A stretch of 64,000 nucleotides of DNA from Gemmatimonadaceae bacterium (GTDB taxonomy: Bacteria > Gemmatimonadota > Gemmatimonadetes > Gemmatimonadales > Gemmatimonadaceae): NCBI GenBank assembly GCA_040901985.1, contig JBBDYC010000005.1, positions 56,423-120,422 of the forward strand. The letters run 5' to 3'. Shown here one piece after another: positions 9,001 to 15,000 of this stretch. The position numbers were made by a program. Numbering within the stretch: the first letter of the stretch is position 1; every line of letters starts with the position of its first letter.

Positions 9001-12000
9001 GCGCCCGCTCACGCAGAGCAGGATTGCATCGTCCGCCTCCCAGCGGCCGGCCTGCGCGAGGACCCACGCCACGGCGTGGGCCGTCTCGAGCGCGGGAATG
9101 ATCCCCTCGAGACGGCTGAGGAGCTCGAAGCCGTCGAGCGCGTCGGCGTCCGTCACCGACCCATACTCGGCGCGGCCGCTGTCGCGTAGCCAGGAGTGCT
9201 CCGGGCCGACACCGGGGTAGTCGAGGCCGGCGGAAATCGAGTGGGCCGGATGCACCTGCCCGTCGGCATCCTGCAGGAGGTAGCTGAGCGCGCCGTGCAG
9301 CACGCCGGGCGTACCGCGGGCGAGCGATGCCGAGTGGCGCCCGCTCTCCAGCCCCTCCCCCGCCGCCTCGACGCCAACCAGGCGGACTGTCGCGTCATCT
9401 ACAAAGGCGTGGAAGATGCCCATCGCGTTCGATCCACCGCCAACGCAGGCCACGACCGCAGTCGGCAGACGGCCGGCGCGCTCGAGCATCTGCGCACGGG
9501 CCTCCCGGCCGATGATCGCCTGAAAGTCCCGCACCATCCGCGGATAGGGCGCCGGCCCGACCACCGAGCCGATGATGTAGTGACTCGTGTCGCAGGTAGC
9601 GACCCAGTCACGGATTGCCGCACTCGTCGCGTCCTTCAGCGTCCGGGTCCCAGCGCCGACCGGGACGACCGTCGCGCCCATCAGCCGCATCCGATAGACG
9701 TTGAGCGCCTGCCGCCGCATGTCCTCCTCGCCCATATAGACAACGCACTCGAGACCGAGTCGGGCGCAGACCGTGGCGGTCGCCACACCGTGCTGCCCCG
9801 CCCCGGTCTCGGCGATGATCCGCCGCTTCCCCATCCGCCGGGCGAGGAGCGCCTGGGCGAGCGCGTTGTTGATCTTGTGCGCGCCGGTATGGTTGAGGTC
9901 CTCGCGCTTGAGCCAGACCGTCGCCCCGACGCGCGCGCTGAAGTTGGGCGCCTCACTTAGCGGCGAGGGCCGTCCGGCGTACGTCTCCAACAGGTGCGTG
10001 AGTTCGCGCCGGAACACGCCATCCGCCATCGCGTCGGCAAGCGCCACTTCGAGGGCGTCGAGCGCGGGGACGAGTGTCTCCGGCACGTAACGTCCACCGA
10101 AGACTCCGAATCGGTCGGGAGGAGCAACCCGCGTCATCACACCTCGTGCGCACCGATCGCCGCGGCGAACGCGCGCATCAGCTCAGGGTCCTTGATCCCG
10201 GGGGTGCGTTCCACCCCCGACGAGACATCCACGACGTCCGGCACCACCACCGACACCGCCCGGGCCACGGTGTCCGGTCGCAGCCCGCCCGCCAGCACCA
10301 CCCGACCGTGCGCCCGCAACTTCGCCACGTCACCGGCAATCGCCGCCCAGTCGAGCGCCACACCGGTCCCGCCCAGCCGTCCCTCGACCCTCGCGTCCAG
10401 CACCACCGCGTCCGCCCCGTGCTCGTACCACGCGGCGACCGCCGACGGCAAGCCGCCCGCGTCGGGACGGATCCGTACCACCGGCCAGATCTCGCCGGCG
10501 AAACGTGCCCGTAACACCACGCAGGTGTCAAAGGTCACTGCACCCGACAATTGTAGCACATCGAGGCCAACTGTGACGGCGATAGCATCGATTTCGTCGA
10601 GCGACGCCGCGCCGAATACCCCCACCCGCCGGACGCCCGTTCCGCTCAAGGGCGCGAACACCTCCCGCGCCTTGGCGGCGGTCAGCGTGCGCGGACCGCC
10701 AGCGAAGATTGCGCCCGCGAAGGAGCCGCCCAGGCGCGGGACCAGCGCCGCGTCCGCGGCGCGCGTGAGTCCGCAGAACTTCAGCTCAGCCACGCGACCG
10801 CCGCGGGACGCCGGTGAGTGCGCCCACCGCCGCCCCGCCGTCCGATGCCGCCGAGAGGATCGACCCCACCAGGACCGCGTCGGCACCGAGCGCGGCGGCG
10901 CGGCGGACGTCGTCGGCATTCTGGACGCCGCTCTCGTACACGGCAATCCGGTCGCCCGGCACGAGCGGAATGAGGCGCGCGCCCACCGCCAGATCCACCT
11001 GTAGCGTCTCGAGGTCGCGGTTGTTCACGCCGATCACCGCCCCGCGCACCGCCAGCGCCTCCGCCAGCTCGTGCTCGTTGCGCACCTCAATCAGCGCGTC
11101 GAGACCAAGCGCCGCCGCCGCGTCCGCCAGCGTGCGCAGGCGCGCCGGCGGGAGCGCCCGGGCGATCAGCAGCACGGCGGACGCGCCGTAGGCCCGCGCT
11201 TCGAGAAGCTGCACCTCGTCGCTCAGGAAGTCCTTGCGGAGCAGCGGGACGTCCTCGGCGACCGCCGCGCGCGCATCGCGCAGGTCGCCCAGCGACCCGG
11301 CGAATCGCGAGGGCTCGGTGAGAATCGAGAGCGCCGCCGCGCCGGCGGCCGCGTACTCGGCGCTCCGGCGCCCGGCGTCGAGCGTCGCGTCGAGCACGCC
11401 CTTGCTCGGCGAACTCCGCTTGAGCTCGGCGATCACGGCGACCGTCCGTCCCGCCAGGGCGGCGCGGAACGACGGTGCCGCGCCCAGTGACGAGACGATC
11501 ACCTCGAGTTCACGCCGGGCGAGCGCACTTTCGCGCGCCCGCACCGCCGACTGCGCGATGAGCTCCCCGAGCGGACCCGTCGGGGCCATCCAACTCCGAC
11601 TCACTTGTGCTTCGGGCAATGTTCGGCTACCGTTACTTCGGGGGGTGTTCGGGCGTCAATCCGGGCGCGACCCCAATCGGTCGCCAGTGCAGTCATCACT
11701 CACGCCGGGGCGCACGCGATGCCGCTCACCAAGGTCCAGCGCAAGATTCTCGACTATCTCCAGAGCTACACGTCGGAGCACGGATACGCGCCGAGCTTCG
11801 AGGAGATCGCCGCCGCGTTCAACTATAACTCGCTCGCCACGGTCCACGAGCACCTGAGCAATCTCGACCGCAAGGGCTACATCCGGAAATCGTTCAACGA
11901 GAGTCGGGCAATCGAGATCCTGCCGAGCGAGGTGTTTGCCAAGGCGATCGAACTTCCCATTCGCGGCACCGTCGCCGCCGGGGCGCCGATCGAGGCGTTC

Positions 12001-15000
12001 GAGTCGAGCGAGACGATCGCCGTGCCGGACGCCTTCGTGCGCCGCGCCGGCGACCATTACGTGCTGCGCGTGCGCGGCGACTCGATGATTGACGACCAGA
12101 TCAGCGACGGCGACTACGTCGTCGTGCACGATCGCCCCACCGCGGACAACGGCGAGATGGTCATCGCGATGCTCGAGGATTCCGGCGCCACGGTGAAGCG
12201 CTTCTTCCGGGAGCGGGACGGGCGCATCCGCCTCCAGCCCGCCAACGCGGCGATGTCGCCCATCTATATCAACCAGGACCAGGTGCGGGTTGAGGGAATC
12301 GTCGTCGGCGTGATGCGGCGGTACTGAGGGCGTTTCAGCGTCGTGAGGCCGAGGCGCTCCGCAGCCGGCCGAGGGCGTCCCATCCGCGCCGTTCGTGCAG
12401 CGCCGTCCGCGCTGCGGCCACGCCGTCCCCGAGGGTCGCCGCCGCACCGCCGACGTAGAGCGCCGCCCCGGCATTGAGGACCACCGCCGCCTCGGCGCCC
12501 GGCGGCCCCTTGCCCAGCAACACCCGCTCGATGATCGTCGCGTTCTCGGCCGGTTCACCCCCGGCAAGGTCGCCGACGGAGAGGCCCGGCTCGACGCCGA
12601 GGTCGCGCAACTCGATCGTCCAGCGCGTGGTCGTGCCGCCACGAAGTTCAATCACGGTCGTCGGGCCGAGGGGCGAGATCTCGTCCATCCCCGGCGCGCC
12701 GTGGACGACGAGCGAATGGGTCGTCCCCAGCTCGGCGAGCGCGCCGGCAATCAGCTCGAGGCGCGCCGGGTCGGCGACGCCGATCACCTGGCGGCCGGCA
12801 GACGCCGGGTTCGCCAGCGGGCCAATCAGGTTCATCACGGTCTGGATGCCAAGTTCGCGGCGCACCGGACCGACGTGGCGCATGGCCGGGTGCATCGTCG
12901 GCGCGAACATGAAGACGATCCCGGCCTCATCGAGCACCTCGCGCATCCGGGCCACCGGCACGTCAATCGGTACGCCGAGCGCCTCGAGCACGTCGGCGCT
13001 CCCGGACTTCGACGTGAAGGAGCGGTTGCCGTGCTTGGCGACCCGGACGCCGGCGCCGGCGGCAAGGAGCGCGGCGGCGGTGGACACGTTGAAGGTCCCG
13101 ATCGCGCCCCCGCCGGTGCCGCAGGTATCCACCAGTTGGCCCGCGTCCGGGGCATCCAGCCGCGTCATCGCCTCGCGCAGCGCACGTGCGGCGCCCGCCA
13201 CCTCGCTTGGCTGTTCGCCCCGCACACGCAGCCCCATCAGGAGGGCGGCCATCTGCGCCGGCGTCCCCTCGCCGGTCATCACCGACCGAAACGCGTCGGC
13301 GGCGTCGGCCGCGTTCAGCGTTTCGCCCGCCGCGAGCCGCCGGAGGACCTGCGGCAGGGTGTTACCGCGCACCAAAGCTCCGGTGGAGACGTTCCCCGAG
13401 CCGCGCCTCCGACGCGATCAGCGCGATCACGAGGCCAAGCAACCGGACGCGCTCGACATCCTCCTCGACGAAGAGTCCGCGTTGCGCGCGATTGGTCAGG
13501 TTCACGACGCCGATCAGCGTGTCGTGGAGGACGAGCGGGAACGAGATGAAGGAGCCGCTGGTGAGGTACTCGTCGCCCAGCAGGGGCTGGGCACTCGCGT
13601 CGCTGACGTCCACCACGAGCACCGGCGCCCGGTCCCGGGCGACGCGTCCGGCAATCCCTTCGCCGAGCGCGATGGTGCGCCCGAGTTGCACGTGCGGCGC
13701 GAGCCCGCGCGCGGCGGCGAGGTAGAGCGTGCCGGACTCGGGGGCGGTGAGGAAGATGGAACAGCGGAACGCCTGCATATCGTCGCCGACGAGCGAGAGC
13801 AGGCCGTCCACCAGCGCGGTGGCGTCCTGGGTGCGGGCGGCGAGGTCGAGCACCTGGTCGAGCAGGTAGAGCGTTCGCGTCCGCTGGCGGAGCGCCTCGC
13901 TGCGCCGGTGCAACTCGATGTGCGCCTGTTCGAGTTGACCGATGGACGCGGTCAGCTGCTGCTCCAACACGGTCAGCCGCCGCTCCATCCGGCGGGCCTC
14001 CTCGGCCCGCTTGGCCTCGTCGCGCTCCCGGGCCAGCCGCGCCGCCGGCCCTTCCGCCGGCATCTCGCCAGTGTGCACCGCCAACTGCTCCTCGAGCTCG
14101 CCCAGCCGCTGGGCGTAGTCGGCGTGGACGCGCTGCGTCACGGCTTCCAACGTGGTGACCGCCTCGCGTCGGGCATCAAGCTCGGCAAACCGGAGCAGCG
14201 CCAGCTCGAAGAGTGCCACGAGCGGACCGAGCCGCTCGGTGATCCGGGTCCCGAACACGCGCTTGGGCTCGGTCGCCGCGAGGATGGCGACGAGCTGACG
14301 GTCGGCGCGGAGGCCACGGAAGAGAAGCACGTCGCCCGGTTCCGGCTCGCCCAGCCGGAGCAGGCGTGCGTAGGCCCCCTGCTCCTCGGTGAGTTCGGCG
14401 AAGGTGCCGCCTTCCTGCACCGCGCGAAGGACAGCGGCCGGCAACTGCTCGACCGAGGTCTCCAACGGCACCCGCTCGACACGGCCGCCCACGACCCGCA
14501 GGCGCTCGCGCATCAGCGCCGTGCGCGGATCCACGCGCAGCAGCGCGAGTCCCGCATCACGGTCCGATTCGGCGAGCGCCTCGGCGAGCCGGACGAACGC
14601 GTCGTCGAGGTCTGACGCCGCCCCGAGGGCGTGCGCGAGCGATGGGAGCGTACGAGCCAGCATCTTGGGGCCACGGGACGGCGCACGCGGCGGTCGCGCG
14701 CACGGAGCGGGAAGGTTGCCGAGCGGCAGAGATGGTGTCAATCGCGCGCCGCCAATCGAGATGCCCTCGGTTCCTTGAAGTCGCCTCTACGGACGGGTAT
14801 TTTCCCCTTGATGGCGGACCGCACACTCCAGCTGGTTCTGCACTACGACGGCACGGCGTTCGCCGGCTGGCAGATCCAACCGGAGCAGCGGACCGTCCAA
14901 GGGGTCCTTGAGACGGCGATGGGTGGGCTGCTGGGCACCGGGATTCGGGTCACCGGCGCGGGGCGGACGGATGCCGGGGTGCACGCCAGGGGGCAGGTCG

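Follow-up and report, generated by a model that had tools for sequence, protein, structure and literature searches.

TTCGG-N6-TTCGG, a predicted direct-repeat LexA operator of the class Gemmatimonadetes

Locus and promoter layout

The window, which is the whole 64,000-nucleotide stretch of contig JBBDYC010000005.1 analyzed here from a Gemmatimonadaceae bacterium (GCA_040901985.1), contains the following features (window coordinates).

10786..11589, minus strand: trpC, divergent from lexA, with its start codon 15 bp from the lexA -35 (context)
11605..11610, plus strand: predicted -35 hexamer of the lexA promoter, TTGTGC, from column conservation
11611..11626, plus strand: predicted operator box 1, exact TTCGG-N6-TTCGG, filling the -35/-10 spacer and starting 108 bp upstream of lexA
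11628..11633, plus strand: predicted -10 hexamer, TACCGT, from column conservation
11637..11652, plus strand: predicted operator box 2, exact TTCGG-N6-TTCGG, over the predicted transcription start and starting 82 bp upstream of lexA
11719..12327, plus strand: lexA, 202 aa (TIGR00498, E 1e-59, 201.6 bits against a cut-off of 110.95)
11830..11856, plus strand: recognition helix 3, residues 38-46, from alignment to the PDB E. coli LexA and covariation with box base 5
12335..13375, minus strand: trpD, running toward the 3' end of lexA (context)

Box 1 occupies the 17-bp gap from TTGTGC to TACCGT, and box 2 begins 3 bp past the predicted -10. The survey's finding had placed two tandem direct repeats over the -35 and -10 elements of lexA; both repeats are indeed exact, but box 1 covers the spacer and not the hexamers. 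The hexamers were derived from column conservation over 70 class promoters, and the start site is a predicted one; the three columns of the TTG 6 bp before box 1 were kept in 62, 68, and 61 of the 70 promoters, and the T, A, and final T of the -10 in 67, 67, and 68. At the position equivalent to the -35, Acidobacteriota lexA promoters have TTGAYY. A consensus promoter scanner called 0 promoters in the lexA upstream region. In this genome, lexA is located within the trp cluster.

By motif positions, the LexA of the window has the cleavage site Ala87-Gly88 and the catalytic residues Ser122 and Lys160 all present (E. coli reference residues for cleavage and catalysis from passages of PMC3091678), as expected of the cognate repressor of an SOS operator. 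The alignment to the PDB E. coli LexA pairs Glu44 of the window's LexA (codon 11848-11850) with E. coli Glu45.

Conservation of the box and predicted regulon

TTCG-N7-TTCG was found upstream of lexA in 52 of 52 order loci (51/51 without the unpublished genome G085), in 19 of 19 loci from other orders (obtained from 19 of the 21 such genomes fetched), and in 41 of 41 named gemmatimonad loci, while a spacer-8 control gave 0, 1, and 3 loci in the same three sets. The earlier description of the lexA box as order- and class-wide thus holds in larger samples. A second lexA box follows 21-37 bp after box 1 in 50 of the 52 order loci and 16 of the 19 other-order loci.

In this genome, recA has two TTCG-N7-TTCG sites, each one mismatch off TTCGG-N6-TTCGG, so that the site type reported there was recovered, as two sites neither of which is exact. 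Across the class, the recA box is present in 27 of 30 loci (24/27 without three unpublished genomes; 26/30 in the survey), 14 times forward and 13 times reverse, and other spacers again gave 0-2 of 30. Upstream of imuA-imuB-dnaE2, the box was confirmed in this genome (C6:100340) and found in 10 of 11 imuA loci (9/10 without G123), compared with 8 of 16 previously. It is absent at 3 of the 30 recA loci and 1 of the 11 imuA loci. As would be expected of an SOS operator, the site lies over the lexA core promoter, recurs at recA and at error-prone polymerase genes, and combines a rigid spacer with orientation-independent placement at recA.

In several phyla, box 1 keeps a constant position between the predicted lexA -35 and -10, as it would if the repeat were a feature that these promoters share (sigma-factor element or preferred spacer) and not a repressor site. 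That reading is extremely unlikely, given that recA boxes stand in both orientations at variable distance, that box 2 lies outside the spacer, and that the box is concentrated at genes of the damage response.

Tetraloops of the sequence CTTCGG are common. With lexA inside the trp cluster and trpC starting 15 bp from the lexA -35, the TTCG words might be RNA features (cUUCGg tetraloop hairpins) or part of trp-operon control, an explanation of almost negligible probability: with G-T allowed, 414 of 422 half-sites are closed by three base pairs or fewer (218 by none), C precedes TTCG in only 85 and 52 of 185 sites, and the box also stands at recA, at imuA, and at lexA in lineages without trp neighbors.

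It is also very unlikely that the motif is bound by another regulator in place of canonical LexA, whether the second LexA-like paralogue or some other factor. The paralogue is present in this genome (C19:190184-190861) and in many genomes of family f1, but its helix 3 differs from that of canonical LexA, the copy in this genome is without the Ala-Gly, Ser, and Lys cleavage and catalytic motifs, and 0 of 14 paralogue promoters carry the box, in line with the earlier 0 of 11. Moreover, 56 of 56 family f2 genomes have one LexA match only at E ≤ 1e-20, and sampled f2 lexA promoters keep the box; across phyla, the box sequence varies together with helix 3 of canonical LexA.

From the sequence, position, conservation, and covariation observed, TTCGG-N6-TTCGG (core TTCG-N7-TTCG, period 11 bp) very probably serves the canonical, cleavable Gemmatimonadetes LexA as operator, as the survey had predicted for the class, with lexA, recA, and imuA conservation in its favor. 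LexA bound at box 1 in the spacer and at box 2 over the start would block RNA polymerase and so repress its own gene, and single or double boxes would repress recA and the imuA-imuB-dnaE2 mutasome. Upon DNA damage, RecA filaments would trigger LexA cleavage at Ala87-Gly88, by which the promoters would be released and the genes induced. No new type of regulation is revealed; an SOS operator usable for an abundant, little-studied class would allow its damage regulon (lexA, recA, the mutasome, and patchy extras) to be mapped.

What makes the motif significant is its conservation across genomes, not how often it occurs in this one. Genome-wide, TTCGG-N6-TTCGG has 12 exact matches versus 3-21 for other spacers from 0 to 15, i.e., no excess. 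With crude gene calls, 9 exact matches are intergenic, where spacer 4 has 8 and the remaining spacers have 0-4, so that the intergenic enrichment of 7 versus 0-3 reported before was not reproduced. Nor did imuA keep its first rank in a position weight matrix (PWM) search; the new PWM puts C9:287175 first and imuA second. The best 8 PWM sites all fall outside called genes. Matches at C9:272570, inside an 847-aa open reading frame, and at C9:321494, inside a called 508-aa gene, were rejected as chance.

The site with one mismatch at pcrA exists as described but is patchy, with a PWM score of at least 14 in only 5 of 30 family loci, its own included. A search of 300 class genomes gave 3 distant methyltransferase homologues, none of them preceded by the C9 island site, and 3 of the 15 M23-peptidase loci have the site there, this genome's own included; the sequences weakly suggest LexA operators at pcrA and in the mobile islands. 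The 400 bp preceding dinB, two uvrA genes, recN, ruvA, uvrC, and a second GIY-YIG gene contain no box, the best score there being 1.1. Several of these repair genes sit inside operons. The proposal of a small regulon holds for this genome in that uvrA, dinB, recN, and ruvA are without a box, but relatives have further boxed promoters, namely, those of a ydjM/DinB-family pair, a Cho-like gene, and separate imuB and dnaE2 genes. An unbiased pattern search of three near-complete genomes gave 20 matches versus 3 for the reversed control, and 10 of the 20 were at lexA, imuA, imuB, dnaE2, the Cho-like gene, or the ydjM/DinB-family pair.

Comparison with known SOS boxes

The Acidobacteria LexA box reportedly was described by Mazon et al. 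in 2006 (Microbiology 152:1109) as GTTC-N7-GTTC. In the comparison with named Acidobacteriota LexAs (A. capsulatum was not sampled by name), the proteins were 54-61% identical and likewise had ATVH-x-H in the helix, and an 11-bp-period repeat occupied the corresponding promoter position, which in the window is the lexA -35/-10 spacer. Acidobacteriota combine Lys with TTCGC-N6-TTYGC and usually have a single box at lexA, whereas the window combines Glu44 with TTCGG-N6-TTCGG. The one-base variant TTCGC-N6-TTYGC was found at lexA in Acidobacteriota, Binatia, Myxococcales, CSSED10-310, and the other Gemmatimonadota class. All 6 of the Lys-type genomes checked, of which two are labeled Acidobacteriota, lack a box at recA.

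In low-GC metagenome contigs, an identical TTCGG-N6-TTCGG lies between TTGAC and TANAAT before a Glu-type LexA. Two of seven proteins looked up from these contigs were source-named Patescibacteria group or Ca. Moranbacteria and the other five carried no taxon; the loci were chosen by pattern and thus speak for presence in Patescibacteria, not for frequency. The 2017 abstract by Sanchez-Osuna, Barbe, and Erill is said to describe Patescibacteria LexA as similar to Acidobacteria LexA. The Patescibacteria LexA motif (Sanchez-Osuna, Barbe, and Erill 2017, Environ Microbiol 19:3465), from a phylum different from that of Gemmatimonadetes, is cited among direct-repeat motifs in a passage of PMC7739468. 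Literature searches turned up no readable paper with the Patescibacteria consensus; the low-GC box is likely identical with it, and a motif of this sequence has probably been published before for that group. With the same box and promoter layout before lexA in Patescibacteria-named contigs, calling it an undescribed direct-repeat box was an overstatement. For Gemmatimonadota, searches on LexA and SOS in gemmatimonads again found no published box, the supplements of PMC7739468 and PMC8565304, which could list sites, being outside their scope.

The alphaproteobacterial SOS box, GTTC-N7-GTTC (passages of PMC3323433, PMC8565304, and PMC3091678), is likewise a direct repeat with a period of 11 bp and a TTC core. 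Unlike it, the Gemmatimonadetes box has a conserved GG after TTC and no fixed G before it (G in 28 and 78 of 185 sites for the two half-sites), and GTTC-N7-GTTC was found in 0 of 30 lexA loci and 4 of 41 named loci. Helix 3 of the one alphaproteobacterial LexA compared (Cereibacter, L507) differs from that of the window in 5 of 9 residues. The Gram-positive box, CGAAC-N4-GTTCG (passage of PMC3091678), resembles the Gemmatimonadetes box in its TTCG/CGAA half-site core and 16-bp span, and Bacillus helix 3 (L508) shares Thr-Val-His, but this box is a palindrome and not a direct repeat, and Gly stands where Gemmatimonadetes LexA has Glu. The Balneolaeota LexA motif TTACACATATTTTWTACATA, which a passage of PMC7739468 gives as validated by EMSA, is also a direct-repeat operator with a different half-site sequence.

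Recognition helix and half-site

Base 5 of the half-site varies with residue 44 of LexA. With Glu, base 5 was G in 111 of 112 first half-sites and 112 of 112 second half-sites; with Lys, it was G in 0 of 45 and 1 of 45, respectively, 6 Lys rows having given no call. A DNA-only search for the G variant returned 120 loci, 34 of which have a LexA downstream; among the 33 LexAs that could be read, 32 have Glu and 1 has Gln. L497, a Glu-type LexA of the Acidobacteriota sample, carries TTCGG-N6-TTCGG, and LexAs with other helices have other 11-bp repeats. L481, which has Lys with TTTGG/TTCGT, is an exception. The reciprocal DNA-first search for Lys-type LexA gave 0 and 4 loci in viral contigs, none with lexA, and two phylum scans gave few matches, in 2 of 151 genomes apiece and never with lexA downstream.

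A single clade of all Glu rows was not rejected by the AU test (p 0.134), and neither was a single clade of the gemmatimonad Glu rows (p 0.194). The last tree, from which the ambiguous L505 (Glu) was omitted, needs 7 changes and has 3 supported independent pairs, 3/3 concordant (p 0.25), with rows picked by hand, some boxes read by eye, and low-GC rows preselected for G by the search pattern; independent switches of residue 44 and base 5 are not proven by these tests.

Helix 3 would read each half-site, with residue 44 (E. coli 45) setting the fifth base: Glu would give G (C on the other strand), and Lys or Arg mostly C. We infer this residue-base contact, as well as the fit of a two-fold symmetric dimer to a direct repeat. 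The Gemmatimonadetes box would then belong to a homologous direct-repeat operator family common to Acidobacteriota and Patescibacteria. On balance, we lean toward the view that in Gemmatimonadota, Acidobacteriota, Patescibacteria, and several smaller lineages, the direct-repeat LexA operators form one such family with a simple, repeatedly switched helix-3 code, in which Glu at residue 44 goes with G and Lys or Arg with C at base 5, and Asn at residue 40 (E. coli 41) goes with A and other residues with G at base 4. Several separately reported direct-repeat LexA boxes would thereby be tied into one family. If this is true, the SOS boxes of unstudied phyla would be predictable from protein sequence, and cultured gemmatimonads would be a tractable system for a symmetric LexA dimer on a direct repeat. 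The recognition rule is easy to test, as exchanging just one residue would be expected to switch LexA specificity. Literature searches on a helix-3 code or on what E45 does returned one usable passage and nothing more. For residue 40, Asn was accompanied by A at base 4 in 6 of 6 rows and other residues in 0 of 48. The code at residues 44 and 40 also fits an E. coli-type palindrome (L356).

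Promoter of lexA

The lexA product, a canonical LexA (202 aa; TIGR00498, 201.6 bits), has Ala87-Gly88, Ser122 and Lys160 all present. It shares 64-70% identity with named Gemmatimonadaceae proteins and clusters among them, in support of the survey's taxon. The gene and its promoter comprise:

11605-11610, predicted -35, from column conservation
11611-11626, box 1, exact TTCGG-N6-TTCGG, lexA promoter
11628-11633, predicted -10, from column conservation
11637-11652, box 2, exact TTCGG-N6-TTCGG, lexA promoter
11719-12327, + strand, lexA

The two boxes that the survey placed in this promoter are both exact. 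In 70 promoters of the class, TTG stands 6 bases 5' of the box and TA...T one base 3' of it, so box 1 would occupy the 17-bp spacer between the predicted -35 and -10, and box 2 lies shortly 3' of the -10. The boxes are at the core promoter as described, but not over the predicted -35 and -10 themselves. A consensus promoter scanner made no call for the lexA hexamers. lexA is antisense within a trp cluster (window 8941-13375), between trpD and trpC-trpF-trpB, and the trpC start is 15 bp from the lexA -35. Convergent trpD and divergent trpC flank lexA in 42/52 order loci and 26/41 named gemmatimonad loci, and nowhere beyond the class among the loci compared; the cluster is possibly a non-contiguous operon with antisense overlap.

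Conservation of the box

The within-genome excess claimed for the exact motif was not reproduced, with 12 occurrences genome-wide versus 3-21 for other spacers and, using crude gene calls, 9 intergenic occurrences versus 8 for spacer 4. This genome alone is insufficient to set the box above chance; cross-genome conservation settles the question. The core TTCG-N7-TTCG was found within 250 bp of lexA in 52/52 order loci, own included (51/51 without unpublished G085), 50 of them with two boxes, in 19/19 loci from genomes of other orders (loci obtained for 19 of the 21) and in 41/41 named gemmatimonad loci; the sampled genomes are kin, and these lexA counts are therefore not independent. As the survey had it, the core also precedes recA (27/30 loci; 24/27 without unpublished G123, G155 and G156) and imuA (10/11; 9/10 without G123). 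The strict TTCGG form occurs at only 12/30 recA loci, since the first half-site tolerates change at base 5. A promoter signature would keep one orientation, but the recA boxes are 14 forward and 13 reverse (other spacers, 0-2). Reading the TTCG words as tetraloop hairpins is unlikely because at 414/422 half-sites the stem is no longer than 3 bp. The core was found at 0/14 promoters of the second LexA-like paralogue; assigning the box to this protein rather than to canonical LexA is opposed by its lack of cleavage and catalytic motifs in this genome and by its not being found at E<=1e-20 in 56/56 genomes of family f2. The paralogue lies at C19:190184-190861, 2 bp 3' of a 487-aa gene resembling gltX; some relatives retain the Ala-Gly, Ser and Lys motifs that it lacks here. 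At lexA of one relative (L062, G098), box 1 is degenerate, and together with it a box in reverse orientation stands 51 bp 5' of the gene.

Regulon

The regulon was searched with a PWM built from 185 sites in relatives. The top eight sites of this genome, all outside called genes, were C9:287175, imuA, an M23 peptidase gene, the msrB/TetR divergent region, both lexA boxes, C7:116622 and recA. In keeping with the small regulon described, no box was found within 400 bp of dinB, two uvrA, recN or ruvA, nor of uvrC or the second GIY-YIG gene. The reported box before pcrA holds for part of the family, a PWM score >=14 being reached at 5/30 family loci, own included (5/28 without unpublished G213 and G226); the M23 peptidase reached it at 3/15, own included (3/13 without the same two), against a background of 16/2276 genes of this genome. 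Both sites are patchy and possibly real in sub-lineages. Strong boxes stand at C8:8545 (msrB/TetR) and at C4:20066 (5' of the M23 peptidase), the latter retained in 2/14 relatives.

Unbiased searching of three near-complete genomes with the pattern produced 20 matches, versus 3 with the reversed pattern as control. Ten were at lexA, imuA, imuB, dnaE2, a Cho-like nuclease or a ydjM/DinB-family pair, three were within copies of an insertion element, and for seven no link to repair genes was found. In relative G129 (L448, L457), one box separates a DinB-family gene from a YdjM gene and another lies 5' of a Cho-like GIY-YIG/UVR nuclease. Two genomes of the genus (C9:136262 here; L461 in G016) have in common a box 5' of accB, close to the end of an M24-like gene, which may reflect coding conservation.

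Helix 3 of LexA and base 5

Thliveris and Mount reportedly found in 1992 that Glu45 of E. coli LexA reads the outermost C-G pair of its operator. Glu44 of the Gemmatimonadetes protein, in helix 3, aligns with this residue, which PMC3091678 names as DNA-contacting. LexAs with Glu had G at base 5 in 111/112 first and 112/112 second half-sites, and those with Lys in 0/45 and 1/45, with 6 Lys rows uncalled. In the wider sample from the phylum of G675 (below), L481 (Lys with TTTGG/TTCGT) is an exception; L505, a Glu row with an ambiguous box, was excluded from the tree. For a blind test, metagenome contigs were searched with a DNA-only pattern with G fixed at base 5, giving at least 120 loci. Among the matches listed, LexA lay downstream at 34 of the 120, with 22 distinct helix segments, and residue 44 was Glu in 32/33 readable LexAs and Gln in one; only one of these loci was gemmatimonad-like, the others having 29-56% GC. 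Base 5 is not simply set by genome composition, as G was found at ~30% and ~70% GC. Across lineages a different helix 3 goes with a different box, and this co-change is the best evidence here that LexA itself is the binder.

The last LexA tree, built with helix 3 removed from rows that were hand-picked, with some boxes assigned by eye and low-GC rows pattern-selected, required 7 changes for both residue and base. Only three independent residue 44/base 5 pairs fell on supported branches (3/3 concordant, p 0.25), and two for Asn40 (E. coli 41) and base 4 (2/2 concordant). In AU tests on an earlier row set, monophyly was not rejected either for the Glu rows (p 0.134, one long-branch row excluded) or for the gemmatimonad Glu rows (p 0.194). 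The rule linking Glu or Lys to base 5 is offered as a strong, testable hypothesis.

Related operators in other lineages

In the phylum's other class, TTCGC-N6-TTCGC precedes lexA at 9/11 loci within 250 bp and 11/11 within 900 bp. Across 80 named lexA loci, TTCGC-N6-TTYGC or a close form was found at the same promoter position in Acidobacteriota, Binatia, Myxococcales, CSSED10-310 and one gammaproteobacterium; Lys stands at the position of Glu44 in all of these. Acidobacteriota had TTCG-N7-TTCG at 8/26 loci, most others having TTTGC in the second half. The TTCG-type box is not limited to Gemmatimonadetes. Unlike in Gemmatimonadetes, recA lacked TTYG-N7-TTYG in 6/6 genomes with Lys-type LexA (L327-L331, L476). 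In the phylum of genome G160, 3/29 LexAs had a His-Lys-His helix, all with the TTCGC form, and those with unrelated helices lacked it. A wider sample of 30 loci from the phylum of the Acidobacteriota genome G675 held a Glu-type LexA with TTCGG-N6-TTCGG (L497), Arg-type LexAs with TTCGT/TTCGC, Asn40-type LexAs with A at base 4 and further LexAs with TACGC repeats (one row, L493, from unpublished G698); several loci gave no box call. In the LexAs of L348, L496, L500, L484, L485, L489, L501 and L344, helix 3 is altered and different direct repeats (TACGC, TACAC/TTCAC, TACAG) occupy the promoter position of the box; these repeats are candidate further SOS boxes.

The Gemmatimonadetes box would work in the manner of direct-repeat LexA operators known from Alphaproteobacteria, Acidobacteria, Patescibacteria and Balneolaeota. 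It does not fit the alphaproteobacterial GTTC-N7-GTTC box and is one base away from the Acidobacteriota form. Of seven blind-test proteins checked for their taxon, two carry the name Patescibacteria group or Ca. Moranbacteria, so the identical box is present in Patescibacteria. It is probably the Patescibacteria LexA motif published in 2017, cited as a direct repeat in PMC7739468. The survey's undescribed SOS box is new for Gemmatimonadota, with an identical box in Patescibacteria and variants in other phyla. No Gemmatimonadota report was found in a literature where most subscription papers lie outside searchable text. The box is real and has good support; it is new for the phylum and a variant of known operators.

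Boxes in mobile elements

Boxes are present in the mobile islands as described, at C7:116622 and C9:287175 (L361:7176). The latter, the genome's best-scoring box, lies in a defence island, flanked by a Ppl-like PHP-ATPase gene and a methyltransferase/type IIG restriction operon, but no such box was found 5' of three distant homologues; the island sites are candidates from a single genome. In relative G089, an identical perfect box is found in three copies of one repeated element (L450, L456, L459), 33 bp 5' of a transposase-like HTH ORF in L450, which suggests an SOS-controlled insertion sequence.
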